A DNA stretch of 62,080 bases, counting the filler, from Candidatus Rokuibacteriota bacterium (GTDB lineage: Bacteria; JAUVQV01; DATDCY01), in NCBI GenBank assembly GCA_031406795.1. It is 8 parts of 8 records of this genome, joined end to end, with 100 filler letters (N's around TTAATTAATTAA, not from the genome) between each part and the next. Parts side by side here need not be neighbours in the genome. Positions count along the whole stretch, not along the records: positions 41,640 to 48,677 come from JANOHV010000185.1; 7 more parts are not named here. The stretch is one strand, 5' to 3'. A model generated the notes under the pieces. The model was not told the DNA's origin. It did no database searches and worked only from the letters and a program-made list of their open reading frames with translations. Shown piece by piece: positions 2,174 to 56,437 of this stretch (positions are counted from its first letter, which is position 1; the number at the start of each line of letters is the position of its first letter). The position numbers and the translations under genes were made by a program.

Positions 2174-3000
<827 letters not shown>

Positions 3001-3021
3001 CCAGGAAGGCGAGAGGGGGCC

Positions 3022-3327
3022 ATGGGTCGTTCATCGCGCAAGGGACCGTTCATCGACCAGCACCTGCTGGACAAGATCGAAGCGCTCAACCGCTCCGGCG
3101 AGAAGAAGGTCGTCAAGACCTGGTCGCGCCGGTCGGTGATCGCCCCGGAGTTCATCGGGCACACCGTAGCGGTTCACAACGGGAAGAAGTTCATCCCGGT
3201 CTACCTGACGGAAAACATGGTCGGCCACCGCCTGGGTGAGTTCTCCCCGACGCGGACCTTCCGCGGCCACGGCACCAAGGCCGAGCGGTCGGCCGCACCG
3301 ACGCCGGCAGCCGCAGGGCCCAAGTAG
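3022..3327 (+). CDS. rpsS: 30S ribosomal protein S19
   Basis: [26 protein letters not shown]; short Ala/Pro C-terminal tail. Confidence 0.99.
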
Positions 3328-3359
3328 CCTCAGGGCGAGCAGGAAGGGACAAGGAAACG

Positions 3360-3698
3360 ATGGAAGCCAGAGCGATCGCAAAATACATTCGGATGTCCCC
3401 GCAGAAGGTGCGCCTCGTCGCGGACACGGTCCGCGGCAAGAAGGTCGAGGAGGCGCTGGCCACGCTCGAGCACACCGCCAAGGCCGCGGCCAAGGTGGTG
3501 GGCAAGGTGGTCAAGTCGGCGGCGGCCAACGTCGAGCACAATCTGAAGGCTGGCAACGCGGAGGAGTTCCGCGTCGCCGTGATCACCGTCGACGGCGGCC
3601 CGATGCTCAAGCGGCACCGTGCGGTCGCGATGGGACGCGCGGCGAAGATCTGGAAGCGCACGAGCCACATCACCGTCGTCTTGCGCGACGGCGTTTAG
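3360..3698 (+). CDS. rplV: 50S ribosomal protein L22
   Basis: IRMSPQKVRLVAD, KRTSHITV. Confidence 0.98.
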   Translation: MEARAIAKYIRMSPQKVRLVADTVRGKKVEEALATLEHTAKAAAKVVGKVVKSAAANVEHNLKAGNAEEFRVAVITVDGGPMLKRHRAVAMGRAAKIWKRTSHITVVLRDGV

Positions 3699-3719
3699 TC
3701 GGAAGGGGGGGAGCGGGAC

Positions 3720-4379
3720 GTGGGTCAAAAAGTTCATCCTGTCGGGCTGAGGCTCGGCATCGTCAACACCTGGAATTCGCGCTGGTACGCCAACAAGGGG
3801 TATGCCGAGCAACTGCATGAGGACATCAAGGTCCGGGCCTTCATCAAGAAGACCCTGTCCCACGCCGGCGTCTCCTGCGTCGAGATCGAGCGGGCTGCGA
3901 AGCGTTTGCGCATCAACATCCACACGGCGCGCCCCGGGATCATCATCGGGAAGAAGGGCGCCGAGATCGACAAGCTGATGAAGAGCCTGCAGGATCTGAC
4001 CGGCAAGGAAGTTTTCGTCAACATCATGGAAGTGCGCAAGCCCGAAATCGACGCACAGCTGGTTTCGGAGAACATCGCGCTGCAGCTCGAGCGCCGCGTC
4101 TCGTTCCGCCGGGCGATGAAGCGCTCGGTGCTCTCCGCGATGCGGTTCGGCGCCGAGGGTATCAAGGTCATGGCCGCAGGACGCCTCGCCGGGCACGAAA
4201 TCGCCCGCAGCGAGTGGTACCGCGAAGGGCGGGTGCCGCTGCACACCCTGCGTGCCGACATCGAGTATGGTTTCGCCGAGGCCAAGACGACCTACGGCGT
4301 GATCGGCGTCAAGGTCTGGGTCTTCCGGGGGATCAAGGATCTCCTCGGGACCGAGGCCAAGGCGGCCGTGAAGCAGTAG
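3720..4379 (+). CDS. rpsC: 30S ribosomal protein S3
   Basis: [26 protein letters not shown]. Confidence 0.99.
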
Positions 4380-7490: not shown

Positions 7491-7516
7491 CGGCGAGCGA
7501 GCGAGGGACGCGGACG

Positions 7517-8053
7517 ATGTCGAGAATCGGGAAGAAGATCAAGGCCATCCCCAAGGGGGTGGAGTTGAAGATTGCGGGGGAGTACCTCGAGGTCAAGGGG
7601 CCGAAGGGCGCCCTGCGCGAGAAGATTCACCCGGCGGTGAAGTTCGAGATCGCCGACGGCGTGCTCACGGTCGTCAAGATCCGTGAGGAGAAGGGCGACG
7701 ACGCGGTGCATGGGCTGATGCGCAGCCTTGCGGTGAACATGATCACCGGCGTCACCGAGGGCTATCAGCGGGTGCTGGAGATCGTCGGCGTCGGCTATCG
7801 GGCCCAGGTGCAGGGGGCGGTGCTGACGTTGAACGTAGGGTACTCCAGCCCGGTCAACTACCCGGTGCCCAAGGGCATCGAGGTCGATGCGTCGGGCAAG
7901 GGTCAGGTCGTCATCAAGGGAATCGACAAGCGGCTGGTCGGCACGGTCGCGGCCGAGGTCCGGGCCATCCGCCCGCCCGAGCCCTACAAGGGCAAGGGGA
8001 TCAAGTATTCCGACGAGCGGATCCGCCGCAAGGTCGGCAAGACCGGCGCCTAA
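7517..8053 (+). CDS. rplF: 50S ribosomal protein L6
   Basis: [20 protein letters not shown]. Confidence 0.99.
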
Positions 8054-8066
8054 GGAGGATGCGAGC

Positions 8067-8429
8067 GTGAAGATGGGTTCCGAGGACGCGAGAAAGAAGC
8101 GTCATGCCAGGATACGCCGGCGGCTCAGCGGTTCGGCCGAGCGCCCGCGGATGTGCGTGTTCCGCAGCGATCGGCACATTTCCGTGCAGATCATCGACGA
8201 TACGACCGGCCGGGTCCTCGTGAGCGCCTCGTCGCTCTCGAAGGAGTTCCGTGAGCAGGGCCTCAAGGGGTCCGGGGTGCCCGCGGCGAAAGCCGTCGGC
8301 GCGCTGATCGCCGGCAAGGCCGTCGCGCAGTCGATCGAAAAGGTGGTCTTCGACCGCTGCGGCTTCATCTACCACGGCCGCGTCAAGGCCCTGGCCGACG
8401 CCGCGCGCGAAAAAGGTCTGAAGTTCTAA
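8067..8429 (+). CDS. rplR: 50S ribosomal protein L18
   Basis: [40 protein letters not shown] 8 nt before GTG 8067. Confidence 0.97.
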
Positions 8430-14728: not shown

Positions 14729-14828
14729 NNNNNNNNNNNNNNNNNNNNNNNNNNNNNNNNNNNNNNNNNNNNTTAATTAATTAANNNNNNNNNNNNNNNN
14801 NNNNNNNNNNNNNNNNNNNNNNNNNNNN
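14729..14828. other. Artificial contig-joining spacer
   Basis: 100 nt: N-run, TTAATTAATTAA (stops in all six frames), N-run; identical design recurs 7 times. Confidence 0.98.
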
Positions 14829-17356: not shown

Positions 17357-17456
17357 NNNNNNNNNNNNNNNNNNNNNNNNNNNNNNNNNNNNNNNNNNNN
17401 TTAATTAATTAANNNNNNNNNNNNNNNNNNNNNNNNNNNNNNNNNNNNNNNNNNNN
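17357..17456. other. Artificial contig-joining spacer
   Basis: N-run + TTAATTAATTAA + N-run, 100 nt. Confidence 0.98.
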
Positions 17457-37885: not shown

Positions 37886-37985
37886 NNNNNNNNNNNNNNN
37901 NNNNNNNNNNNNNNNNNNNNNNNNNNNNNTTAATTAATTAANNNNNNNNNNNNNNNNNNNNNNNNNNNNNNNNNNNNNNNNNNNN
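37886..37985. other. Artificial contig-joining spacer
   Basis: N-run + TTAATTAATTAA + N-run, 100 nt. Confidence 0.98.
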
Positions 37986-38013: not shown

Positions 38014-38152
38014 CCGGGGGCATTCTGGTGCGTAAGGATGCGTTCGGGCAAGGCGGCGAAATCGGCGCGGGGTGGCGATATCGGTGTGCGCCGAACATGC
38101 GACGCGCGGAGCAACGCCGCCGGGGCGCATCAGGGCCTCCTGAATGCCCCGG
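38014..38152. repeat. MITE/REP-like inverted-repeat element upstream of ftsW
   Basis: CCGGGGGCATTC (38014-38025) / GAATGCCCCGG (38142-38152) plus inner imperfect arms GATGCG..GGCGGC / GCCGCC..CGCATC. Confidence 0.55.
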
Positions 38153-38173
38153 GCGTCCACGGGGAGCGCGCCG

Positions 38174-39292
38174 ATGCCTAGGCAGGCGCGGACGGACATC
38201 TGGCTGGTGCTGCCGGTGACGCTGCTGGTCATCCTCGGGATCGTGATGATCTACAGCGCCAGCGCGTTCGTCGCGGTGAAAAAGAACCAGCCGCAGTACT
38301 ACTTCCTCGTGCGCCAGCTCCTCTGGACCGCGATCGGCGCTGCGGCTCTGGCGCTGGTCAACCGCGTGGACTACCGCTCCTACCAGCGTTGGGCCCGGCT
38401 CTCGGCCGCCGGGGTCGTCCTGCTGCTGGTGGGCGTGCTCGTGCCCTTCATCGGACACTTCAAGGGCGGGGTGCGCCGCTGGATCGGGCTCGGCCCGGTC
38501 GACTTCCAGCCCTCCGAACTGGCCAAGATCGGGCTGATGATCTTTCTCGCGGCGGTGCTCTCCGCCAAACGCGAATCCTTCCTGAAAAAGGGCTGGAAGG
38601 CGATCCTCCCGGAGCTGGGGGTCGTCGGGCTCTGCCTCGTGCTGATCATGTTCGAGCCGGACCTCGGCACGACCATCACCCTCGCCGCCTCGCTCGGCGC
38701 GTTGCTTTTCGTCGGCGGGCTGCGTCTGCGCCCGCTGCTGCTCTGTGGGGGGGGCGGGCTGCTCGCGGTCGGCCTTTCGCTTTATTTCAACGCCTACCAG
38801 CGCGCCCGGGTCAGCACTTTCCTCGACCCGTGGAGCGTGGCGCAGGGCAAGGGTTACCAGACGGTGCAGGCCTTCCTCGCGCTCGGCCGCGGCGGCCTCT
38901 CCGGCACCGGGCCCGCGGGCAGCCGGCAGAAACTCTTCTTCCTGCCGGCCCCGCACACGGATTTCATTCTCGCGGTGATCGGCGAGGAACTCGGTTTCAT
39001 CGGGCTGGTGCTCGTCGTCGGGCTCTTCGGCGTCATCCTCTGGCGCGGGATGCGCATCGCGCTGCGGGCGCCGGACCTGTTCGGCACCTACCTGGCGTTT
39101 GGTCTGACGTTCTGTCTCTTTCTCCAGGCCGTGATCAACATCATGGTCGTCGCCGGTCTGATGCCGACCAAGGGGTTGACGCTGCCGTTCCTGAGTTACG
39201 GCGGAACCTCGCTGGTGGCGAGTCTGGTTTCCGTCGGCATCCTGCTGAACATTTCTCAGCACGGCGTGTCGGTCAAATCGGACGCAGCGTGA
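38174..39292 (+). CDS. ftsW: Peptidoglycan glycosyltransferase FtsW
   Basis: IYSAS, RRWI.LG..FQPSELAK, EPDLGT, LPAPHTDFILAVIGEELG, PTKGLTLPFLSYGG. Confidence 0.97.
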   Translation: MPRQARTDIWLVLPVTLLVILGIVMIYSASAFVAVKKNQPQYYFLVRQLLWTAIGAAALALVNRVDYRSYQRWARLSAAGVVLLLVGVLVPFIGHFKGGVRRWIGLGPVDFQPSELAKIGLMIFLAAVLSAKRESFLKKGWKAILPELGVVGLCLVLIMFEPDLGTTITLAASLGALLFVGGLRLRPLLLCGGGGLLAVGLSLYFNAYQRARVSTFLDPWSVAQGKGYQTVQAFLALGRGGLSGTGPAGSRQKLFFLPAPHTDFILAVIGEELGFIGLVLVVGLFGVILWRGMRIALRAPDLFGTYLAFGLTFCLFLQAVINIMVVAGLMPTKGLTLPFLSYGGTSLVASLVSVGILLNISQHGVSVKSDAA

Positions 39293-40398
39293 TGCAGACG
39301 CAACGGACCTTCGGGCTGGCGGTGGCCGGCGGCGGGACGGGGGGACACATCTTCCCCGGCCTCGCGGTGGCCCGCGAATTCCGCCGTCGCGAACCGGGAG
39401 CCCGGGTGCTCTACCTCGGCGCGGCTGGCCGACTCGAGGAGCGGGTCGTGCCGCGCGAGGGGCCGGCCGTGCGTTTTCACGGCCTGCGGGTGCGTGGTCT
39501 GAAGGGGCAGGGTCCGTTGGGGGCCGTCACGGCTCTGGTGCTCGCTGCTCGCGCCGTCGCGGAGTGCCGCCGCGAAATCGCCGCGTTCGGCGCCGACCTG
39601 CTGCTCGGCACCGGCGGCTACTCCTCGGGGCCTGCGGCAGTTGCCGCCCGCACGCTGGGCATTCCCGTGGTGCTGCAGGAGCAGAACGCCGTCCCGGGGT
39701 TGACCAACCGTCTTCTCGGCCGAATCGCCCGGAAGGTCTTCATTGCCTTCGAACCGGCGCGGCGCTTTTTCCCCGCAGGCCGCACGATCCTGGCCGGCAA
39801 CCCTGTCCGCGAGGAAGCGCTGGGCGCGAGAACCGAAATCGGTCGCGGTGCCGGCCTGCGCCTGCTGGTGCTCGGCGGGAGCCAGGGGGCCCGGGGCGTG
39901 AACCGGCTGGTGGCCGGCGCGCTGCCGTCGCTGGCGGCCGCGGGGCTGGATCTCTCCTTTGTCCACCAGAGCGGCGAACCCGAGCGCGAGTCTGTGGCGG
40001 CCGCCTACCGGGCGGCCGGTCTGTCCGCCGAGGTCGCTTCGTTCTTCGACATGATGGGCGAGCGCTACGGCGCGGCCGACCTGGTTATCGCGCGGGCCGG
40101 CGCCGGGACGATCGCCGAGATCGCGGCCAACGGTCGTCCGGCGATTCTCATCCCTTACCCGCACGCGGCCGGGGATCACCAGCGCGTCAACGCCCGCTGG
40201 CTCGCGGATCGCGGCGGGGCGCTGCTGGTCGAGGAGCAGGCCGCCGACGCACCGGCTGAACTGGCCCGGGCGATCAGCGTGCTGGCAGGCGACCGGGAGC
40301 GGCTGCGCCTGATGGCGGGCGCGAGCGCCGCGGTCGGTGTGCGCGACGCCGCGGCGCGAATCGTCGACGAATGTCGGCGCCTGCTCGGGCGAACGTAG
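39292..40398 (+). CDS. murG: Lipid I N-acetylglucosamine transferase MurG
   Basis: AGGGTGGHIFPG, GTGGY, EQNAVPG.TN, GGSQGA, RAGAGT.AE, HQRVNA. Confidence 0.97.
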   Translation: MQTQRTFGLAVAGGGTGGHIFPGLAVAREFRRREPGARVLYLGAAGRLEERVVPREGPAVRFHGLRVRGLKGQGPLGAVTALVLAARAVAECRREIAAFGADLLLGTGGYSSGPAAVAARTLGIPVVLQEQNAVPGLTNRLLGRIARKVFIAFEPARRFFPAGRTILAGNPVREEALGARTEIGRGAGLRLLVLGGSQGARGVNRLVAGALPSLAAAGLDLSFVHQSGEPERESVAAAYRAAGLSAEVASFFDMMGERYGAADLVIARAGAGTIAEIAANGRPAILIPYPHAAGDHQRVNARWLADRGGALLVEEQAADAPAELARAISVLAGDRERLRLMAGASAAVGVRDAAARIVDECRRLLGRT

Positions 40399-40411
40399 AG
40401 GGGAACGGGAC

Positions 40412-41539
<1,128 letters not shown>

Positions 41540-41639
41540 NNNNNNNNNNNNNNNNNNNNNNNNNNNNNNNNNNNNNNNNNNNNTTAATTAATTAANNNNN
41601 NNNNNNNNNNNNNNNNNNNNNNNNNNNNNNNNNNNNNNN
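41540..41639. other. Artificial contig-joining spacer
   Basis: N-run + TTAATTAATTAA + N-run, 100 nt. Confidence 0.98.
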
Positions 41640-41640
41640 G

Positions 41641-42108
41641 CTCAAGGGCGCGATCTCCGACGACGTGGCGGCCTGGGGCATCGTCGTCAAGACCGTCGAG
41701 ATCCAGGACATCAAGCCCTCGCCGACGATGCAGATGGCGATGGAGCAGCAGGCCGCGGCCGAGCGCACCCGCCGCGCCGCGATCACGGAGGCCGAGGGCA
41801 AGAAGTCCGCGGCGATCCTGATGGCGGAGGGCGCGAAGGAGGCGGCGATCCGCGAGGCCGAGGGGAAGCTCGAGGCCTCGCGCCGCGACGCGGAGGCCAA
41901 GATCATCATGGCCGAGGCCAACCGCGAGGCGATCGCGCGGGTGACGACGGCGTTCGGAGACAAGGAATTGCCGGCTCTGTACCTGCTCGGGGAACGCTAC
42001 ATCGACGCGGTGCGCCTGCTGGCGAATTCGCCGAACGCCAAGACCCTGATGCTGCCCGCCGACGTGCTGCACGCGGTGCAGGGCCTGCTGGGGCGCGCGA
42101 AAACGTAG
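41641..42108 (+). CDS. SPFH/band-7 (QmcA/paraslipin-like) protein C-terminus, 5' truncated
   Basis: WGI.V..VEIQDI.P...AME.Q..AER.RRA.I.EAEG, YI.A...LA.SPN.K..LP. Confidence 0.88.
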   Translation, partial: LKGAISDDVAAWGIVVKTVEIQDIKPSPTMQMAMEQQAAAERTRRAAITEAEGKKSAAILMAEGAKEAAIREAEGKLEASRRDAEAKIIMAEANREAIARVTTAFGDKELPALYLLGERYIDAVRLLANSPNAKTLMLPADVLHAVQGLLGRAKT

Positions 42109-42114
42109 GAGTAG

Positions 42115-43143
42115 TTACTTCTGGCGCGTCGGCGCTCCCGGGACGGGCGGGAACTCGATGCCTTCCGCTCGAAAGCGCTCGACGATGCGGGCGCGCAGTT
42201 CGCTGATCACGGCAAGCTGCTCGGCGAAGGCCGCGACCTGGCAGTGCAGCGTGAAATCGAGCGAGGTCGGGCCGAACCCGGGGGCGAAGCGGACGACGGG
42301 CGGAGGATCGGCCAGCAGACCGGGCACTTCGGACGCCGCCCGCACGACGAGATCGAGCAGCACCCGCTCGACCTGTCGCGGGTCGCTCGCGTGGTCGACG
42401 CCGACGGGAATCTGCACCGTGAGCCGCGGCTCGGGGAGCGAGTAGTTCGTCACCACGCTCTGCGAGAGCTTGTTGTTCGGGATGATCACGATGTTGTTCT
42501 GGAGCGTGCGGATGCGCGTCGTGCGCCAGGTGATGTCGAGTACGGCGCCCTCCTGGCCGGACTCCAGACGCAGCGTGTCGCCGACACGGACGGACTTCTC
42601 GACCAGGATGTGGATCCCGGCGAAGAGGTTCGCGAGCGTGTCCTGCAGCGCGAGCGCCACGGCCAGGCCGCCGACGCCGAGGGCGGTCAGCAGCGGGGCG
42701 ATCGCGATCCCCAACTGGGAAAGGATGATCACGAAGCCGATGGCGAGGATCGTGCCCTTGATGACCCCGTAGGCCAGGCCGGTGGTCGGCAGCGGCAGAT
42801 CGGTGCGCTGGACGGACTGGCGCACGATCTTCCCGGCGATCGTCGAGGCCGCCATGGTGATCGAGAAGGTGACGAGCACGCGAATGGTGCGCACCAGATA
42901 GAGCAGGTACTTGTCGGGGAGGTCCGACATCGAAAGGGCCAGATGCAGGCCGATCGCCAGGCACCAGACGATGGAGGGGCGGCTGAGCGCGCGCACGACG
43001 ATGTCGTCGATCGGCGAGGACGTGCGTTCCGACCAGCGGTGCAGCAGGCGCAGCGAGACGCTGCGCAGCAGCAGCAGCGCGAGGCTGGTGCCGATGAAGA
43101 TGCCGAGCGGCAGCGTAACCCTGGTCAGGAGATCGGCGGGCAT
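42115..43143 (-). CDS. Small-conductance mechanosensitive channel (MscS family)
   Basis: LGVGGLAVALALQDTLANLFAG, VGD, ITWRTTRIRT, IIPN, F..EGIEFP. Confidence 0.93.
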   Translation of the reverse strand: MPADLLTRVTLPLGIFIGTSLALLLLRSVSLRLLHRWSERTSSPIDDIVVRALSRPSIVWCLAIGLHLALSMSDLPDKYLLYLVRTIRVLVTFSITMAASTIAGKIVRQSVQRTDLPLPTTGLAYGVIKGTILAIGFVIILSQLGIAIAPLLTALGVGGLAVALALQDTLANLFAGIHILVEKSVRVGDTLRLESGQEGAVLDITWRTTRIRTLQNNIVIIPNNKLSQSVVTNYSLPEPRLTVQIPVGVDHASDPRQVERVLLDLVVRAASEVPGLLADPPPVVRFAPGFGPTSLDFTLHCQVAAFAEQLAVISELRARIVERFRAEGIEFPPVPGAPTRQK

Positions 43144-43166
43144 GGGGGATTATACCGCGGAAGACT

Positions 43167-43685
43167 TCAGTTCAGCGCGCGCCCGGCGCGAAGCCTGCGC
43201 CAGCGCGGGACCACGCGGTGGGAGAGCAGACGAAAGAGCCGGGGCGAGCGGTAACTGATCATGGCCAGCAGGAGGCGCAGTGCCGGCCGAAAGAAGCCGT
43301 CGGGAACCGCATGGTGCGTCCGGACGCGGCGCCCGGGTCCGGAGGCGGCGACGACCTTCGCCAGAACGCGATCGCTCGTGATCCGTTCGTCCGGCGCTGC
43401 GCAGGCGTCTCCCTTGACCAGCAGCCACGGGGTGCCATCAGCGCAGCGCTCGCGGCGGATCAAGCGATGGAGCACCGGGTATCCCGCGCGGGTCAGGAAC
43501 AGGACGATGTCGCCCGGTGCGAGCGTCGAGGCACCGACCCGGCGCAGCGTCACGACGGCGCCGTCCTCGAGCCAGGGCGACATGCTGCGTCCCGTCACGC
43601 GCAGCCGCACGTCGTGACCGCGGCACAACAACTCGTCAACCAGCGTCACCAACTCCCGGCCGTCCCCGCTCGTGCTTGCAATCAT
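43167..43685 (-). CDS. S24/S26-family peptidase (RiPP-cassette associated)
   Basis: RVTGRSMSPWL.DG (Ser), GDIVLF, VLHRL (His), VKGDA; ATG at 43685 in ATGA overlap; no N-terminal TM. Confidence 0.8.
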   Translation of the reverse strand: MIASTSGDGRELVTLVDELLCRGHDVRLRVTGRSMSPWLEDGAVVTLRRVGASTLAPGDIVLFLTRAGYPVLHRLIRRERCADGTPWLLVKGDACAAPDERITSDRVLAKVVAASGPGRRVRTHHAVPDGFFRPALRLLLAMISYRSPRLFRLLSHRVVPRWRRLRAGRALN

Positions 43686-44608
43686 CGAGCCTCCGGGAGG
43701 CCGTCGATCGTCTGCAGCAGCGCCTGCACGGCGCCGGCCGCCGGACGAAACGTCAGTTCGTACGCGGGGCAGCTGGCAATCAGGCCCTGGGAGAAATCGA
43801 CGGCGCGCTCGGTGAGTTCCCGATCGAAGAGCGGCGTCGACAGCACGGGCAGCAGCCTCTTCAGCGCAGCGGCGGGCGCGAGGGGGGAGATGCCGTCCGC
43901 GTCGCCCTTGGTCAGAAAAACCAGGGCGGCGAGCGGCAGGCTCCGGTTCGCGGCAAAACGGCCTTCCCCCGGCCAGGGGCTGCCGGCGATGCGCAGGCCC
44001 TCGACCGAACGGCGGACAATCACCCGGTCGTCGCTCAGCACGGTGATCCCGGCCGCGTCGCAGAGGCGGGAGATGGTCGTCTTGCCGGCGCGGGAGGGAC
44101 CCGCGAGGATCACGCCCCTGCCGCCTATGTCGACGCCGGCCGCGTGAACGATCGTCCCTTCGCCGGCAAGCGCGAGCATCAGCACCATCTGGTCCAGCGG
44201 ATAGTGAAACGGGCTTGCGAGCCACGTGACACCGGCGCGATCGACGAGCAGTTCACGGCCGCAGATCACGCGAGCCGTCCGCCGCCGCCGGTCGATCTCG
44301 GCCTCCCACGCGGGGGCGGCGCCGGCCGGAGTCGCCTGGGGGACGATGACGAATTTGCCCCCGAGTTCCCGCAGCGTCCACGAACGGCCCGCCTCGAACA
44401 GCAGTCGTCCGCGGGGGGACGCGGGCACTTCGCCGACGAGCAACTCGATGCTGATCGAGTCCGCCGACGCGGAACCGCCCTCGTCGAGGAAGGGAAGATA
44501 CTCGGGATTCGTTTCCGGGAGCAGCGGGTAGTCGCGACAGATGATCGAAATCGGCAGACCGCCGAACCGGAACCGACAGCCGCCGGGAGCAGCCCTTTCA
44601 AGTGCCAC
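43682..44608 (-). CDS. HPr-kinase-like P-loop protein (ScmC-like)
   Basis: VHAAGV, GPSRAGKTTISRL Walker A, LSDDRVIV, GSPWPGEG, YELTF. Confidence 0.82.
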   Translation of the reverse strand: MALERAAPGGCRFRFGGLPISIICRDYPLLPETNPEYLPFLDEGGSASADSISIELLVGEVPASPRGRLLFEAGRSWTLRELGGKFVIVPQATPAGAAPAWEAEIDRRRRTARVICGRELLVDRAGVTWLASPFHYPLDQMVLMLALAGEGTIVHAAGVDIGGRGVILAGPSRAGKTTISRLCDAAGITVLSDDRVIVRRSVEGLRIAGSPWPGEGRFAANRSLPLAALVFLTKGDADGISPLAPAAALKRLLPVLSTPLFDRELTERAVDFSQGLIASCPAYELTFRPAAGAVQALLQTIDGLPEAR

Positions 44609-44626
44609 GGGGAGGCACCCGCAGGC

Positions 44627-44797
44627 TCACGACCCGAAGTCGAAACAGGCGCTGATCAGGCAGCCCCCGCCGGGCTGCTTGCTGGATCCGCTTCCCGAGC
44701 TCGACTTGCACCCCACGACCATGACTTCCTCGGCGGCGAAGTCGATCACGGTCAGTTCCGGCTTCTCGTACGGCCGCTTGTCCTGCGCATCAGCCAT
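44627..44797 (-). CDS. Putative RiPP precursor peptide (56 aa)
   Basis: MADAQDKRPYEKPELTVIDFAAEEVMVVGCKSSSGSGSSKQPGGGCLISACFDFGS; YxxPxL leader motif, 3 Cys; GGAGG SD 7 nt upstream; lies between rSAM and kinase genes. Confidence 0.85.
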   Translation of the reverse strand: MADAQDKRPYEKPELTVIDFAAEEVMVVGCKSSSGSGSSKQPGGGCLISACFDFGS

Positions 44798-45890
44798 CTT
44801 CATGCCTCCAAGCATAGATTCTTTCCCGACGTTTGTCACCCAGCGCGCAGAGATACGCGGAAGGCCGCTCCCGGGAACCGCCTTCGAACTCCATGAACGG
44901 CGGGCACAGACCGCAGATATTGCGTCTGTCGCAGGCGTTGCAGCGGTCGTCGTGCGCGACCGTCATCCCGGCGATCTCCTCGACGATTTGCGCCCACGCG
45001 GATCTGAAATCCTGCACGCGCAGGTCGCGCGCCGGCCGTCGGGAGAGCAGGCAGGGGCGGAGCGACCCGCGCGGGTCGATGTGGAAGTTGGTGACCCCCG
45101 CGCCGCAGGTGTAGAGTCGGCGGGAAGGCGGCTCTGCGGCGCCGCGCTCGTAGCAGTCGCGCCAGTGCGCGGCGCTCTCCCGGTTCGGGATATCTCGAAG
45201 AGCGGCCTCCTCGGGGGAGATGCGCAACGCGACCGGGCCGGGGTCTCCATCAAGCCGGGGGAAGATGGCCGGGTCGAACCGCCACCGCGCGCCGTGGTCG
45301 GCGGCCAGTCGCGCCATATCCTCGAACTCGCTCAGGTTGAGGTTCATCAGGACGGTCTTGACGGTCAGCGGCAGCCCGGCGCTCCGGAACCGATCGATGC
45401 CCGAAAGAAACGACCGGAACGACCCCGGAACGCCGGTGATGTTCTCGTGTGTCATCGCGGTTGAACCGTACACGCTCGCCTCGATCATGGCCGGCGGGAG
45501 TTCCCGGAGGAGGGCGACGAGCTCCGCGGAGACTGCGGTCGCATTGGTGAAGAGCGTGACGCGCATGCCGCTGCGCCGGGCCCGGGTGTACAACTCGCCG
45601 AAGTCGGGGCGCAGCAGCGGCTCGCCGCCCGTGAAAACGAGGTCGAGGCAACCGGCGGCGACCAGGCTGTCGATCAGGCCAAGCCAGGTTGCGGTGTCCA
45701 GCTCCTCCGCGCCGCCCGCCGCCGCGCGCTCCTCGCCGAGATAGCAGTGAATGCACTTGAGATTGCAGCGCCTCGTGATCTCGATGCCCCCGGCGACCGG
45801 GACGGCGGCCTCGCGGAACCTGCGGCGCAGGGCCAGGATGCGCGCGGCGTTCCCGGTGCTCCCGGCGCAGACGGCGGCGACGGCGCTCAC
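44790..45890 (-). CDS. Radical SAM enzyme with SPASM domain
   Basis: CNLKCIHC, FTGGEPLLRPDF, FTNAT; C-terminal CGAG...PC...CNAC.....CGLC...LC (7 Cys). Confidence 0.95.
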   Translation of the reverse strand: MSAVAAVCAGSTGNAARILALRRRFREAAVPVAGGIEITRRCNLKCIHCYLGEERAAAGGAEELDTATWLGLIDSLVAAGCLDLVFTGGEPLLRPDFGELYTRARRSGMRVTLFTNATAVSAELVALLRELPPAMIEASVYGSTAMTHENITGVPGSFRSFLSGIDRFRSAGLPLTVKTVLMNLNLSEFEDMARLAADHGARWRFDPAIFPRLDGDPGPVALRISPEEAALRDIPNRESAAHWRDCYERGAAEPPSRRLYTCGAGVTNFHIDPRGSLRPCLLSRRPARDLRVQDFRSAWAQIVEEIAGMTVAHDDRCNACDRRNICGLCPPFMEFEGGSRERPSAYLCALGDKRRERIYAWRHEDG

Positions 45891-46189
45891 GGGACATCCT
45901 CCACCAGGCCGCGCGAGCGGGCCTCCGCGATAAAAGCTTCCAGGTGCTCGCGCGCCTCGTCGCGGCCGACCTCGAAGGCTCCCACGGTTTCCTCGAGAAT
46001 GCGGCCGAGATTCCGCTCGCCGTCGATTCGCTCCCAGATGAAGGCGGCGGTCTGGTTGAGCGCGAAGAGGCTCTGCATGTCGGCGGTCCGTCCCCGAATC
46101 GGCACGAGAATGGTTTCGCCGGCAATCTCCCGGCGCACAATCTCCCCCCTGGGCCGGATGACGCGCCCGGGTTCGAACGTGCTGGTCAT
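45887..46189 (-). CDS. PqqD-family RiPP recognition element (RRE)
   Basis: IVRREIAGETILVP, LFALNQTAAFIWERIDG, FEV....A......FI......GLV. Confidence 0.92.
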   Translation of the reverse strand: MTSTFEPGRVIRPRGEIVRREIAGETILVPIRGRTADMQSLFALNQTAAFIWERIDGERNLGRILEETVGAFEVGRDEAREHLEAFIAEARSRGLVEDVP

Positions 46190-46201
46190 CGTTCCGCCAA
46201 C

Positions 46202-48676
46202 CTAGTGCAGGACCAGGGCCGGGTCACCCAGGATACCGTAGATGCCCAGGGTGTAGTCGGGGCCGTACGCCTCCCCGTAGGAGCGCAGGGCCGCGAGGAA
46301 CAGATCCCCGAGGCGGGGTGCGCCCCCGGAATGGCGGAGCAGGGTGAACTCCCGGGCCAGGCGTCGCGAGCGATCATGGAGCGACAGTCCGCTGGACGAA
46401 AGGAGGGCCGCGGCCCCGCCGTCGCTCCTGAGCAGCAGCGCCTCGCCGAGATTGACGTAGCCGGGGTCGGAATAGCTGCCCGCCAGACACGTGAAAAGCG
46501 TGAACAGCGGCAGGGGGGCCCCGCTGCCGAGCGACGGCACGTCGGCGGCGAGCAACAGCCCTTCGTCCGCCAGTCGGTCATAGCCGGCGTGTCCGAAGTA
46601 GTTGACCTGGGAGACCCCGCCGACGATGCCGGCTGCCAGTGTGCCTCTGGCGGCCGCGAGACCCTGTTCGCCGAGGTACACGGTCGTCCGCCCGTAACCC
46701 GGAGGCAGCAGGTCCATCAGCGCGTTACTGTCGGTGACGTAGTCCCCGCCCTGATCCGGCTGGTCCGCGGCGAACAGCACCCCGGGTGTCGGCGGCTGCG
46801 GCGCCGCTTCGTAGGCGATGATCTTGTCGACCACCGCGTCCAGTTCGGCCGCTGTTTTCGCCGGTATGCGGCCGATCGCCAGGCTGGGGATGGAATCATC
46901 GTCGTCGTCGGCGTACCAGTTGTCGGACGCGAACAGGCCGCGCGGGGTGGAGACCATGGCGGGCGGCACCACGCACTCGTCATGGCCCAGGAAGTTCCGG
47001 TAGTCGTAGCTGCCGTCCCCGGCCAGCAGGACATACCGCGGCGGCGTCGCCCAGGAGTCTCGCGCGTAGGCGAGGAATTTCCGGATGGCGTCCGGGCTGT
47101 AGACACCGTCGTTGAACTCGTCCATGACCGAATCAACCGTCACCACCCTGGCGCTCAGTCCTTCGGAGCGGCGGTAGGCGGCAAGCCGCTCGGCAGCGCC
47201 CAGCATCTCCCCGGCGGTAATGATCAGGTAGTCGGCGGCGTTCGCCGGGTTGAGCAGTCCCGCGGAAACCCACGGCGAGAGAGCGGCGACACCGGCGATC
47301 GCGGTGTCGGCGACGAGAAGATACGGGATGTCGGTCCCGGCCGGTGAGAACGTCGCCTGGTAGCTGCCGGCGGCGCCGTCGATCCTGGCGCCCGTGACGA
47401 GTTTCGGCGCCCGCGGGTCGGCAATGTTGAAGATCCGGATCGCCGGCGTCGTGAAGCCGGAGACAGCTACGGATGCGTTCCCGTCGCCCCGGATCGTGAT
47501 CCGGTCGCCGACGGCCTGGTAGTCACGGTAATAGGCGATGTCCATGGCGTCGAGATAGAAGACGCTGTAGGGAATCCCGGCATCGCGCACGGCTTCGATT
47601 TCAACGGCGTTGTCGCCGTCGGCGAGAAGGCGCTGATCGAAACCGAGCGTGACGACGAGCGGATCGAGTCCGTTCCATCGGCCTTCTCCGATCATGGTCC
47701 CGTTCATGCGGACGATGACGTGGTGCTCCGGGTCCGCGATGGTGTCGGTCGCGCCCCGCAAGGAGACCGCCAGGCTGGCAGTGCCGGCCCCCGACGAACC
47801 GGGAGTGGTGAGCGGGAAGGTCTTCCGGCCGAGCGTCACATTTCCGGCTACCAGATAATCCCAAAGCCAGTAGTCGGCGCGGGGGTCGACGGCGCCGCCG
47901 GTCAGGGTCATGCGGTTCTCTTCGGCGTGTGCGCCATTGAGGAACAAAGCCCCGGCCGCTGCCGGAAGCGCCGGCGCGGCGCGCAGACTCCGGACGAGCC
48001 GTCCGTGACCGGGGGCGATCCAGTAGGCGCTTTCGCCGGAGAATACGGTGTCGGTGCCTTGGCCGTAGAAGAGCAGGCTCTCTCCCCCGTCGACGGGAAG
48101 ATAGGCGACGCTCGAGGACATGGCGGTGAGATCGATTCTGCCGGTGGCGATCATCGTCCGGGCCTTCTTGAGGCTGATCCCGAGCAGCGGGGCGATCTCG
48201 GCCGCGCCGATGCGGTAGATGCCGTCCCGGAGCACCGTGACGCGGATGTCGCTGCCGACGATGCCGGCCGGCGCCAGCGCACGCGCGCGAATGGATCCCG
48301 CCGGCCTCGCCGGGGGCAGCCCCGCCTTGCGCTTCGAGGACTGGCGCGGCTTGCGGGAAAAGATCTCCCCCGCGCGAGAGAAGGCGGTGGCCGACGCGGC
48401 CTGGGCGGCCGCGGGCCGATCGTCCAGTTGCACACGGAAGGGTCCGTAGGCGATCGGCGCTCCCTGGGTCACGATCTCGACGAGTTTATAGCGCAGCTCG
48501 GGGCCGAACGCGCCGGCATCGATTACCGTGTAGGTGCCCCCCGAAGAGGACTCGAGCAGGGCGGGGACGATCTCCGTCGTGACCGGGATTTCGGCCCCGC
48601 GATCAAGTCGATACAGGTAGAAGCCGGCAGTCCCGGATTCAGCGGCGGTCTCCCAGGTCACGAGCGCTCCTTCCGC
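46202..48676 (-). CDS. Large protein with C-terminal C25 (gingipain-family) cysteine peptidase domain, probably 5' truncated
   Basis: ADYLII, I.DEF-like MDEFNDG, YVLLAGDGSYD, SDNWY, AIGRIPA, VNYFGHAG (His), FTCLAG (Cys), GILGDPAL; frame open to the contig edge. Confidence 0.88.
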   Translation of the reverse strand, partial: AEGALVTWETAAESGTAGFYLYRLDRGAEIPVTTEIVPALLESSSGGTYTVIDAGAFGPELRYKLVEIVTQGAPIAYGPFRVQLDDRPAAAQAASATAFSRAGEIFSRKPRQSSKRKAGLPPARPAGSIRARALAPAGIVGSDIRVTVLRDGIYRIGAAEIAPLLGISLKKARTMIATGRIDLTAMSSSVAYLPVDGGESLLFYGQGTDTVFSGESAYWIAPGHGRLVRSLRAAPALPAAAGALFLNGAHAEENRMTLTGGAVDPRADYWLWDYLVAGNVTLGRKTFPLTTPGSSGAGTASLAVSLRGATDTIADPEHHVIVRMNGTMIGEGRWNGLDPLVVTLGFDQRLLADGDNAVEIEAVRDAGIPYSVFYLDAMDIAYYRDYQAVGDRITIRGDGNASVAVSGFTTPAIRIFNIADPRAPKLVTGARIDGAAGSYQATFSPAGTDIPYLLVADTAIAGVAALSPWVSAGLLNPANAADYLIITAGEMLGAAERLAAYRRSEGLSARVVTVDSVMDEFNDGVYSPDAIRKFLAYARDSWATPPRYVLLAGDGSYDYRNFLGHDECVVPPAMVSTPRGLFASDNWYADDDDDSIPSLAIGRIPAKTAAELDAVVDKIIAYEAAPQPPTPGVLFAADQPDQGGDYVTDSNALMDLLPPGYGRTTVYLGEQGLAAARGTLAAGIVGGVSQVNYFGHAGYDRLADEGLLLAADVPSLGSGAPLPLFTLFTCLAGSYSDPGYVNLGEALLLRSDGGAAALLSSSGLSLHDRSRRLAREFTLLRHSGGAPRLGDLFLAALRSYGEAYGPDYTLGIYGILGDPALVLH

Positions 48677-48677
48677 C

Positions 48678-48777
48678 NNNNNNNNNNNNNNNNNNNNNNN
48701 NNNNNNNNNNNNNNNNNNNNNTTAATTAATTAANNNNNNNNNNNNNNNNNNNNNNNNNNNNNNNNNNNNNNNNNNNN
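48678..48777. other. Artificial contig-joining spacer
   Basis: N-run + TTAATTAATTAA + N-run, 100 nt. Confidence 0.98.
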
Positions 48778-52700: not shown

Positions 52701-52800
52701 NNNNNNNNNNNNNNNNNNNNNNNNNNNNNNNNNNNNNNNNNNNNTTAATTAATTAANNNNNNNNNNNNNNNNNNNNNNNNNNNNNNNNNNNNNNNNNNNN
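52701..52800. other. Artificial contig-joining spacer
   Basis: N-run + TTAATTAATTAA + N-run, 100 nt. Confidence 0.98.
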
Positions 52801-54537
52801 GCTCCGCCTTCGACCGGCCTCGACGGTGCGCGGCACACCAAGCACGACGCCAGCCTCTGGGTGCCGAACGACTGCGGCAACTGCCACGCGGCGCAGAGCA
52901 ACAAGACCTCGATGGCCACCTACACGACCCACATCAACGGCACCGTGAACATGGGCGGCACCTCGACCGTCGCCTACCTCGGCGGCGGCGACTGCACCAA
53001 CGCCTGCCACGACGTGATCCCGGCGTCGGCCGGCGACTGGCTCGACGTAGCCGTCCTGGCCTGCGCCGACTGCCACAGCGGCGCGTACATCGGCACTGCG
53101 CCGACCTCGGGGCTGCACGGTCCGATGACCAACGCGATGGCGCACGACGTCCAGTTCAAGCTGACGCCGGTCGAAGTGCTGCCGGGGACGGCGACCTGCA
53201 CGCACTGCCACACGGCGGCCGGCCCATCCAACACCCATCTGACGGGTCCGAACCTCGCTGCGCCCCAGACTTCCGTACAGACCACCTACAGCTGGGTGGC
53301 TGCAAACGTCGTCACCTACGTGCAGGCGACGGGCTGCCAGGCGACCTGCCACACCGACTACAAGCTCACCGACGCGGCCGGTCTCTGGCGGCGCAAGTGG
53401 ATGAGCGTCACCGACGCGGTCCCGGGTGCCGCCAACAGCGCCGGCGACCCGGTCTGCGACAACTGCCACGGCGACTTCAGCGGCTGGCGCTGGAACGAGG
53501 CCAACGCCTCGACCACCGACCACACCGACCCCACGGCGCTGAACCCCGGCGGTAACGCGATGGGCGTCGATCCCTCCCACATCGACTGCCAGACCTGCCA
53601 CGGCTGGGGCAAAGCGGCCTACAACAAAACCTGGGGCGGTGCCGCTCCGGGCCACGGCGATGGTTCGATCACGATGAACGGGCCGCAGCCCACGACCGGT
53701 GCCGGTTACATCGACTCGGGCACCGACCAGGGCGGCTGCGCCAAGGCCTGCCACCTCCCGACCTGGGTGATGAACACCAACAGCGGCTGGAACGCCAACT
53801 ACGGCGACTTCGGCGGCGGCACCTGCGAGGGCTGCCACAACGTCGTGACGCCCGGACGCAGCGGGGCTGGCGCCTGGGCGCCGAACGTGATGGGCGACGG
53901 GAACAGCGCGAACGGGACCGGAGGCACGCCCAGGCCCTACGACAACGGCGTGTGGGGCTACAACGTGAACGGCCACGGCGCCAACGGCACGGCGTCGGTG
54001 ACGTCCGACACCGACTTCGGGCCCGGAGTCAGCATCCTTGCCCCGAACCTGGCGTGCTCTGCCTGCCACGCGCTGCAGTCGCACCACTTCGACGGCGTGC
54101 TCGACGGCGGCGCCGCCGGGGGCGCGGGGACCCGCTACCTGAACACCTACCACCTGCGCACCGACCTGACCTACCCCTACGTCAAGGCCGGCGACCCGGA
54201 CACCTCCGCGGTCCAACTCTCGTTCGACGACGCCTGCTACCGCAACTGCCACGAGGGGATCGGCATGGCCCGCGGAACGCACGGGTCGAACCCGACCGCC
54301 GGTGTGGTCCAGTTCGGCCGCATCGCTAACGTCATCAGCGACGGCGAGCCTCTGACCTGGCCGGTCGACAGCGACATCACGACGCGGGCCGGGACCGCCG
54401 GCACCGACTACGCGCCCTGTTCGACCTGCCACAGCGCGCACGGCACGAACACCGTCGAGTCGACGCTGCCGTCGAACCGGATGCTGCGGGTGAAATTTTA
54501 TTCGACGAATGACCTGTGCGATACCTGCCACTATTGA
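52801..54537 (+). CDS. Large multiheme c-type cytochrome, 5' truncated
   Basis: 9 CxxCH plus 4 CxxxCH (CTNACH, CQATCH, CAKACH, CYRNCH) in the visible part; G/T/N-rich. Confidence 0.92.
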   Translation, partial: APPSTGLDGARHTKHDASLWVPNDCGNCHAAQSNKTSMATYTTHINGTVNMGGTSTVAYLGGGDCTNACHDVIPASAGDWLDVAVLACADCHSGAYIGTAPTSGLHGPMTNAMAHDVQFKLTPVEVLPGTATCTHCHTAAGPSNTHLTGPNLAAPQTSVQTTYSWVAANVVTYVQATGCQATCHTDYKLTDAAGLWRRKWMSVTDAVPGAANSAGDPVCDNCHGDFSGWRWNEANASTTDHTDPTALNPGGNAMGVDPSHIDCQTCHGWGKAAYNKTWGGAAPGHGDGSITMNGPQPTTGAGYIDSGTDQGGCAKACHLPTWVMNTNSGWNANYGDFGGGTCEGCHNVVTPGRSGAGAWAPNVMGDGNSANGTGGTPRPYDNGVWGYNVNGHGANGTASVTSDTDFGPGVSILAPNLACSACHALQSHHFDGVLDGGAAGGAGTRYLNTYHLRTDLTYPYVKAGDPDTSAVQLSFDDACYRNCHEGIGMARGTHGSNPTAGVVQFGRIANVISDGEPLTWPVDSDITTRAGTAGTDYAPCSTCHSAHGTNTVESTLPSNRMLRVKFYSTNDLCDTCHY

Positions 54538-56337: not shown

Positions 56338-56437
56338 NNNNNNNNNNNNNNNNNNNNNNNNNNNNNNNNNNNNNNNNNNNNTTAATTAATTAANNNNNNN
56401 NNNNNNNNNNNNNNNNNNNNNNNNNNNNNNNNNNNNN
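56338..56437. other. Artificial contig-joining spacer
   Basis: N-run + TTAATTAATTAA + N-run, 100 nt. Confidence 0.98.

Follow-up and report, generated by a model that had tools for sequence, protein, structure and literature searches.

A putative radical-SAM-associated ribosomal peptide family related to the linear polyphosphorylated peptide pathway in a Candidatus Rokuibacteriota genome

Introduction

Linear polyphosphorylated peptides (LPP) are RiPPs (peptides made on the ribosome and modified after translation) of Bacillota whose pathway comprises LppA, LppK, LppB, LppS, LppD and LppN (Popov et al., Nat Commun 2026; PMC13381572). In the portion of that paper available to us, the LPP leader is given as YxxPxVLxHQxIxFET, followed by xxS with Ser3 as the acceptor; LppK adds several phosphates to this core Ser3, and LppS cleaves after F-E-T only when LppB presents the leader. 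The same portion names [Y/W]xxPx[L/V/I/F/A] as the motif bound by the discrete RiPP recognition elements (RREs) of lasso peptide systems. The HprK homologues encoded in lasso clusters act on a C-terminal Ser, which they at times phosphorylate more than once, and are largely indifferent to the remaining peptide, as stated in the accessible part of PMC8498205. A stretch of DNA of 62,080 nucleotides (hereafter the window) from a Candidatus Rokuibacteriota bacterium (GenBank assembly GCA_031406795.1) was found to carry an operon in which a radical S-adenosylmethionine (SAM) enzyme gene stands beside putative homologues of LPP genes, and this work concerns its precursor peptide gene, located at 44627..44797 on the minus strand. 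An earlier note on this DNA, made from the sequence alone, had described the peptide as a precursor with a lasso-type leader, three cysteines and a C-terminal Ser, and had proposed thioether or other radical cross-links together with phosphorylation of the terminal Ser.

Results

The precursor and its family

Translation of 44627..44797 (minus strand) gives a peptide of 56 aa, MADAQDKRPYEKPELTVIDFAAEEVMVVGCKSSSGSGSSKQPGGGCLISACFDFGS, followed by a stop codon. It consists of a conserved leader, residues 1 to about 25-29, and a core extending to Ser56. YEKPEL was found at residues 10-15, the cysteines at 30, 46 and 51, and FDFGS at the C-terminus, all as the earlier note had given them, and AAEEV (21-25) and VGCK (28-31) are likewise present. 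On the same strand, the codons of Y10-E-K-P-E-L15, a YxxPxL motif of the RRE-binding type, lie at 44753..44770, that of Cys30, which is 20 residues past Tyr10 and is followed by the invariant Lys31, at 44708..44710, the Cys46-x4-Cys51 segment at 44645..44662, and the codons of Gly55-Ser56 at 44630..44635.

The ATG at 44797 is the likely start, since a GGAGG ribosome-binding site (44805..44809, minus strand) stands 7 nt 5' of it and the reading frame and the radical-SAM gene overlap at the latter's stop codon (44790-44792). The longest frame, of 70 aa from a GTG at 44839, has no comparable ribosome-binding site and is less likely to be the real precursor. A sigma-70-like sequence, GTGACA-17-TATGCT (44811..44839, minus strand), is a consensus match only; it is the sole one on its contig (one found against a shuffle mean of 0.3). 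It falls inside the radical-SAM gene, at the 3' end and immediately upstream of the precursor, and is a possible internal promoter. Its own genome contains one copy of the precursor gene.

When the precursor sequence alone was used in a word-based search, it matched only itself; relatives emerged from an alignment profile. The profile of seven precursors retrieved 609 peptides among 1275 candidates in a set of 5.8 billion proteins, all of them unnamed or called 'hypothetical protein' at source and none with a Pfam domain, and 1455 representatives at E<=1e-3 in a library of 1.84 billion. Three Cys follow the leader in all of the best 120 of the 609 peptides (120/120), which end in GS (116), GT (3) or GP (1). 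The best 150 of the 1455 representatives end in Ser (147) or Thr (3), contain three Cys (147) or four (3), and have the leader motif in 149/150.

The pooled set comprised 264 distinct sequences, 263 of which have the leader motif with its Tyr and Pro. The family leader reads K-x-x-Y-E-K-P-x-L-R-x-I-E-L-A-A-E-E-V-L-A-V-G and then Cys-Lys 20 residues past the Tyr, a spacing kept in 259/263, with Lys directly after Cys1 in 260. A variable loop of 12-15 residues, rich in Gly, Ser, Ala and Pro and with a median of three Ser/Thr, separates Cys1 from Cys2, and the core ends in Cys-x4-6-Cys-x3-4-Gly-Ser-COOH. The gap between Cys2 and Cys3 is 4 in 192/261 sequences and 5 in 51, and five residues follow Cys3 in 224/261. 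Three Cys occur after the leader in 260/263 sequences, the penultimate residue is Gly in 251/263, and the C-terminal position of the 263 is taken by Ser (256), Thr (six) or Pro (one). The earlier note had held that a lack of conservation of the Cys and the terminal Ser would speak against its proposal; both proved near-invariant. As a partial control for the terminal residue, 34 sequences whose match to the profile fell short of its last column still end in Ser (31) or Thr (3). The precursor gene and its family are real and not the product of chance, because the architecture recurs in 10/10 close homologous loci examined and in hundreds of database peptides. The open reading frame (ORF) is thus probably the precursor of a large, uncharacterised RiPP family.

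The operon

The operon is on a contig of 7,038 bases (window 41640-48677), with all its genes on the minus strand and translationally coupled. The first gene (46202..48661) encodes a gingipain/PorU-like peptidase C25 (Pfam Peptidase_C25, E 6.5e-71; PorU model, E 8.1e-57, below its cut-off), and its 5' end is cut off by the end of the contig, where a run of N starts at 48678. It is followed by the genes for a discrete PqqD-type RRE of 100 aa (45887..46189; Pfam PqqD, E 9.8e-15) and for a radical-SAM/SPASM maturase of 366 aa (44790..45890; Pfam Radical_SAM, E 1.8e-24), so that the PqqD gene is two genes upstream of the precursor with the radical-SAM gene between them. Downstream of the precursor are the genes of an HPr-kinase-like P-loop protein of 308 aa (43682..44608; listed under PF27840 'ScmC', with weak HPr-kinase matches in sequence) and of an archaeal/ER-type signal-peptidase-I-like protein of the S24/S26 kind with 172 aa (43167..43685; Pfam Peptidase_S24, E 3.7e-5), whose ATG overlaps the kinase stop codon (ATGA). 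The gene next after the operon, for an MscS channel, is not conserved in the homologous loci.

Comparison with LPP loci

The kinase profile was run against 251 Bacilli genomes and gave five strong matches (E 4e-19 to 4e-25), four of whose loci (L133-L136) were examined. Genes for YxxPxVL...FET peptides and for an ABC exporter were present in three of the four (L133, L135, L136), a PF14907 transferase in L133, L134 and L135, and PqqD in L133 and L136; judged by context and precursors, not by name, these are LPP loci. The kinase family of the window aligned over its full length with the L133 kinase (hhalign prob 99.1, E 1.5e-18, 255 columns), the PqqD profile with the L133 RRE (hhalign prob 96, E 4.1e-9), and the window peptidase with a 161-aa ORF at the peptidase position of L133 (BLASTP E 5e-9). 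By these alignments, the RRE, kinase and peptidase are homologues of the LppB/LppK/LppS core.

The likeness extends to the YxxPx[LV] leader with a shared Glu at -2, and to the presence in one operon of an archaeal-type leader peptidase similar to signal peptidase I (SpI) and an LppK-like kinase. What the system has beyond LPP is a giant C25 peptidase, the radical-SAM/SPASM enzyme, and a precursor in which three Cys and the C-terminal Gly-Ser are invariant. A scan of the operon with Pfam and NCBIfam found neither the PF14907 nucleotidyltransferase nor an MsbA-like exporter, and the full YxxPxVLxHQxIxFET leader and Ser3 are not matched in the window family, in which the Ser3 column of the alignment is Val or Leu. 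The system also lies outside Bacillota, to which LPP are said to be restricted in the available portion of PMC13381572. The LPP pathway is its nearest characterised relative. With a radical-SAM enzyme, and lacking the transferase, the pump and Ser3, the system is not LPP in the published sense.

The kinase-like protein

PF27840 (ScmC) is listed as a precomputed domain for this exact protein and for 118/119 other listed relatives. A profile search of the PDB with the kinase matched the P-loop region only (HprK/P, E 4.6e-3), and for this reason a fold comparison was required for the assignment. An AlphaFold2 model built from 60 relatives had a mean pLDDT of 93, and the top folds in Foldseek were ATP-dependent phosphoenolpyruvate carboxykinases (PEPCK) and HprK/P at prob 1.00, with TM-scores of only 0.26-0.56. 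H155, G170-x-S-x-x-G-K-T178 and S192-D193 were invariant in the 60 sequences, and in an alignment with L. casei HprK/P the His, P-loop and SDD fell opposite its His, GDSGVGKS and ADD. According to model and alignment, the protein has the PEPCK/HprK fold and the motifs of HPr kinase/phosphorylase.

The radical-SAM enzyme

The enzyme contains the CxxxCxxC motif (C42/C46/C49) and C262, C280, C317, C320, C326, C329 and C348, all invariant in seven homologues. The seven additional Cys, spaced as C-x12-G-x4-C ... C-x2-C-x5-C-x2-C ... C, make up a full SPASM set, and the protein would carry three [4Fe-4S] sites including two auxiliary SPASM clusters. The nearest solved sequence was the sactisynthase SkfB (E 2.6e-18), and a model with pLDDT 81, built from seven sequences, had SkfB as its closest fold, followed by SuiB, PqqE, BlsE, CteB and anSME. 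For no named NCBIfam family did the enzyme reach the cut-off, and it scored highest with NirJ2, AhbD, ScmE, TIGR04053 and StsB; its bit scores against the cut-offs were 86/625 for StsB, 64/300 for SkfB, 62/850 for AlbA and 51/340 for PapB. These comparisons place it as a RiPP-type SPASM maturase, a placement that does not fix its chemistry. The StsA sactipeptide precursor model matched one of the seven members (E 1.4e-3, 18 bits vs a cut-off of 42) and was rejected, since the match was taken as an effect of Ser/Gly composition.

Leader recognition and removal

The statement of the earlier note that YxxPxL is the RRE-binding motif of lasso leaders agrees with the motif given in the available portion of PMC13381572. 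Prediction of the complex of PqqD and precursor gave a score of 0.49 vs 0.03 for the best control, with runs agreeing in at least 90% of contacts and a partner pLDDT of at least 52. The mark set for this score was reached by 116/157 solved complexes and 2/215 mismatched pairs. Both of the passing mismatches reached it at 0.60 or under, as did just 18/157 solved complexes. The prediction thus lends weak support to binding, and because similar RRE-leader complexes have already been solved it may show likeness only.

The signal-peptidase-like protein matched NCBIfam sigpep_I_arch at E 2.2e-10, below the cut-off of the model. Its candidate catalytic residues are S34, H73 and D93/D99, the spacing of which we take to resemble that of SipW/Sec11-type enzymes. 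The E-E-V of the family (residues 23-25) aligns to the F-E-T columns of LPP, as do F-E-T in the metagenome loci L089 and L097, F-E-V in L094 and L-E-V in L114. Since LppS cleaves after F-E-T (available portion of PMC13381572), this alignment predicts cleavage at V25|M26 to give a 31-residue core starting MVVGCK. The alternative G29|C30 fits the rule of small residues at -3 and -1, since most members have Gly at -1 and one of Ala, Gly and Ser at -3. Cleavage would take place at one site or the other. The junction drawn in the earlier note, AAEEV..VGCK, holds as far as the two strings are concerned, and the alignment with LPP predicts the cut after EEV and not directly before Cys.

Homologous loci and distribution

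A search with the radical-SAM enzyme brought up two loci of Nitrospirota (L001, L002), which share the gene order and encode precursors that are clearly homologous, and a WOR-3 locus (L003) with a divergent one. Scanning metagenomes with the kinase-like protein disclosed 26 loci; in nine of them (L085, L086, L088, L089, L091, L093, L094, L097, L098), a scan for the motif revealed a YxxP precursor with Cys beside the kinase gene. L105 has a YTKPRL ORF without Cys; the remaining 16 loci were short, or were distant kinase matches in which the motif scan found no Cys-bearing YxxP ORF. Further loci came from genome searches: L112/L137, L113/L138 (which belong to the genus of the window), L114 and L139.

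The order PqqD, radical SAM, precursor, kinase is kept in the window, L001, L002, L085, L086 and L137; L138 and L139 have the same genes in an order that is partly resolved, and the same arrangement is seen in part in L088 and L093, which are fragments. In 8/8 close-family loci with enough flank (the window, L001, L002, L085, L086, L137, L138, L139) a C25 gene lies adjacent; L098 also has one, and the flanks of L088 and L093 are too short to tell. The signal-peptidase-like gene is adjacent in the window, L001, L002, L086 and L138, and not adjacent in L137. In L085 (5855-6733), an APH-family phosphotransferase gene (E 1.9e-18) occupies its usual place.

Across the wider set of loci with ScmC, PqqD and radical SAM, precursors contain two or three Cys in 18/18 cases. 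Systems like that of the window occur in Nitrospirota, Thermodesulfobacteriota, Planctomycetota, Acidobacteriota and other non-Bacillota taxa. The distribution of the cassette is patchy: the kinase profile matched 13/41 genomes in the search of relatives, the window's own included, and the cassette is present in one of three genomes of the same genus.

Some of these loci show features of their own. The kinase-like gene of L138 (same-genus genome G001, about 7500-8400 of the locus; G001:C15:402524-403398) matches the profile in three frames, covering profile positions 7-112, 110-248 and 238-297, and could be a decaying gene or reflect assembly errors; the precursor of this locus is intact, with a different core loop. 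L139 (G005:C3:121000-137000) has two C25 and two radical-SAM genes around a single precursor, one of the C25 genes being convergent with it. L003 contains a second radical-SAM/SPASM-like gene of 430 aa (2485-3777), and its precursor (2184-2309) has a C-G-C-G-C core and a P-S-P end. Intermediate precursors were detected in L089 (646-822), L097 (3961-4113) and L094 (976-1140): they have two Cys (C-G-K ... C) and a terminal Ser, and their leaders end as in LPP, with F-E-T in L089 and L097 and F-E-V in L094. They are accompanied by radical-SAM/SPASM and PqqD genes in L089 and L097, by PqqD only in L094 and by an S24-like gene in L097, with no C25 gene. Last, a 442-aa frame of L094 (1154-2479) is apparently a fusion of kinase-like and signal-peptidase-like parts, judged from motifs only (GTSMRP / GDIL / CHR); no Pfam match was found for it at E<=1e-3. 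If true, this fusion would link the two functions.

Comparison with lasso, sactipeptide and SynChlorMet systems

With the phosphorylated lasso peptides (paeninodin, pseudomycoidin) the window system shares a YxxP/WxxP leader, a discrete PqqD-type RRE, an HprK-like kinase and a precursor ending in Ser, the terminal Ser being their phospho-acceptor (accessible part of PMC8498205). It differs from them in having a radical-SAM enzyme and in the absence from the operon of a cyclase, a B2 peptidase and the macrolactam signature.

The maturases of sacti- and ranthipeptides (SkfB, CteB, AlbA, PapB, StsB) resemble the window enzyme in their full SPASM Cys set, and the systems have in common an RRE-dependent leader and a Cys-bearing core. 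The RRE of the window is a separate protein and not a fused domain, and the window fits no curated maturase or precursor family, all scores being far below the cut-offs. Known sacti- or ranthipeptide clusters do not, to our knowledge, include a kinase, a signal-peptidase-like peptidase or a C25 peptidase.

The SynChlorMet (SCM) cassette, which is a bioinformatic definition only, has an HprK-like ScmC, a PqqD-like ScmD and the radical-SAM/SPASM enzymes ScmE and ScmF, thus the same kinds of protein, and PF27840 is listed for the kinase-like protein of the window. The bit scores against the equivalog cut-offs are 31/125 for ScmC, 31/100 for ScmD, and 93/400 and 70/400 for ScmE/F, and SCM has two radical-SAM enzymes against one in the window. 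On these scores, the window cassette is not an equivalog of SynChlorMet. No mention of SynChlorMet was found in the full-text literature searched.

Other parts of the window

Paired runs of 44 N (14729-14828, 17357-17456, 37886-37985, 41540-41639, 48678-48777, 52701-52800, 56338-56437) break up the window into contigs that are separate and all belong to one draft genome (of 278 contigs), and genes on opposite sides of such a run need not be neighbours in the organism. A separate contig encodes a 558-aa multihaem cytochrome (52861-54537, plus strand; Cytochrome_C7, E 2.8e-11) with more than 10 CxxCH-type motifs. On another (38144-41587, plus strand), frames that by eye resemble murG and murC come after a gene of the FtsW/RodA family (E 2.8e-106), in an ordinary cell-wall cluster. 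A further contig (49831-52700, plus strand) encodes a 410-aa protein without family match beside a large protein, rich in Arg and Ala, whose C-terminal part holds a von Willebrand factor A domain (E 4.1e-9); both are unrelated to the precursor operon.

Discussion

The acceptor of the phosphate and the chemistry of the radical-SAM enzyme allow more than one reading, and several of the data weigh against the one adopted here. Within the family no hydroxyl residue but the terminal Ser/Thr is kept (262/263), and because the HprK homologues of lasso clusters also target a C-terminal Ser (accessible part of PMC8498205), Ser56 is the best candidate for the acceptor, perhaps phosphorylated more than once; we give this assignment an even chance. 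The earlier note had ascribed such activity to the HPr-kinase homologues of paeninodin-type clusters, in agreement with the same source. On the opposite side, LppK, the characterised homologue, phosphorylates core Ser3 and not a terminal Ser (available portion of PMC13381572), so that homology to LppK leaves the site unfixed; four of the 18 precursors of the wider set (L003, L006, L091, L098) have no terminal Ser, each still beside a kinase-like gene, with the kinase motif LGED instead of LSDD in L091 and L098; and profile searches favour family-like sequences, by which the apparent conservation is somewhat inflated, the 34 sequences mentioned above being a partial control. The kinase could thus act elsewhere, on a Ser/Thr of the internal loop or on a non-peptide substrate, and the Gly-Ser end could be kept as an acceptor or recognition element for the radical-SAM enzyme or the C25 peptidase; indeed, PapB is able to link Cys to a C-terminal residue (accessible part of PMC12373016). 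We regard this as fairly unlikely, since Ser/Thr is not conserved at any internal position (just 130/263 have one of the two directly after Cys-Lys), the column of LPP Ser3 holds Val or Leu, and the lasso HprK homologues recognise the C-terminal Ser irrespective of most of the other peptide sequence (accessible part of PMC8498205). Phosphorylation might also serve for activation only, phospho-Ser being converted into dehydroalanine and then into lanthionine with Cys, or by hydrolysis into Gly-amide and pyruvate. The invariant Gly-Ser end and a nearby Cys would allow this elimination route, and the sequence of kinase and elimination is established in class III/IV lanthipeptides. In the present case it is very unlikely: Pfam and NCBIfam found no lyase or cyclase domain in the operon, lanthionine would need no dedicated radical-SAM enzyme, and LPP and lasso systems keep the phosphate and extend it (available parts of PMC13381572 and PMC8498205).

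As for the radical-SAM enzyme, intramolecular thioether bridges, sactionine or ranthionine, formed from the three invariant Cys appear on balance to be the most likely product. The thioether synthase SkfB comes first both by sequence and by fold, and Cys is the one core feature common to all precursors beside such an enzyme in the 18 loci. The pooled alignment shows no conserved acceptor residue in the core; this speaks against the assignment as far as a partner is concerned, and it fits links to C-alpha, which do not depend on a side chain, without proving them. The enzyme might instead form a C-C or C-N cross-link with the invariant Lys after Cys1, or catalyse epimerisation or formylglycine formation, with the Cys engaged in disulfides or in metal binding. 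Its best NCBIfam scores (NirJ2/AhbD, ScmE and PqqE, all below the cut-offs) are not those of sactisynthases, and enzymes that make no thioether, namely SuiB (Lys-Trp), PqqE (C-C) and anSME (formylglycine), are among the closest folds. Such chemistry is possible and lies on the unlikely side, neither Trp nor Tyr being conserved and no non-Cys partner apparent. The lasso-type label of the earlier note stands for the YxxPxL motif and the discrete PqqD, which also matches the NCBIfam lasso chaperone models weakly (E 1e-4 and 1.6e-3, below the cut-offs). It does not stand for the system as a whole: Pfam and NCBIfam found neither an asparagine-synthetase-like cyclase nor a transglutaminase-type B2 peptidase in the operon and the homologous loci, and there is no conserved Asp/Glu at core positions 7-9 for ring closure, and for these reasons the chance that the precursor is that of a lasso peptide is next to nil. 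'LPP-related, radical-SAM-containing RiPP' should be the better label.

On the reading adopted here, the discrete PqqD-type RRE would bind the YEKPxL leader, as homology to LppB and lasso B1 suggests, and the radical-SAM/SPASM enzyme would modify the core by bridges of Cys-derived thioether. The ScmC-family HPr-kinase-like protein would then O-phosphorylate a Ser, most likely the C-terminal one as in paeninodin-type systems, and the LppS-homologous signal-peptidase-like protein would remove the leader with the help of the RRE, by a cut at V25|M26 or G29|C30. The co-transcribed secreted C25 peptidase would belong to the system, perhaps in trimming, as a target or in attachment. This pathway as a whole, from the RiPP family and the RRE to the thioether, kinase and signal-peptidase steps, is probable in our judgement, with all of the modification chemistry predicted from homology. 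The system would work most like a phosphopeptide pathway of the LPP/paeninodin type joined to a cross-linking step of the sacti/ranthi type. A bolder view, to which only a small chance is given, would make it the founding member of a new RiPP class, a radical-SAM thioether-bridged peptide with a (poly)phosphorylated C-terminal Ser, leader removal of the signal-peptidase type and a functional tie to a giant secreted PorU-like C25 peptidase; the peptide could then be the dedicated substrate or inhibitor of the C25 peptidase, or a cargo which this sortase-like enzyme would attach to a surface polymer.

No description of the family or of this combination was found in the full-text literature; the supplements of PMC13381572, on domains near SpI genes, lay outside that search and might mention radical-SAM neighbours. 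Literature on peptidase C25 with RiPP, and on HPr kinase with radical SAM, PqqD and RiPP, likewise gave nothing on the precursor family.

If the chemistry is true, the pathway would join two strategies that have so far been met only apart: radical-SAM cross-linking of Cys, and HPr-kinase phosphorylation of Ser combined with signal-peptidase leader removal. It would also mean that the LPP-type module reaches phyla of sediment and soil, beyond the Bacillota of the available portion of PMC13381572. The signature Y-x-x-P, 20 residues, C-K, ..., C-x4-C-x3-G-S at the end can be used in genome mining. The strict linkage to the C25 surface peptidase offers a testable lead to the biological role, and a loop that is hypervariable between fixed Cys and Ser anchors, across 1455 representative clusters, is what a diversifying peptide with a bioactive or signalling function would be expected to show.

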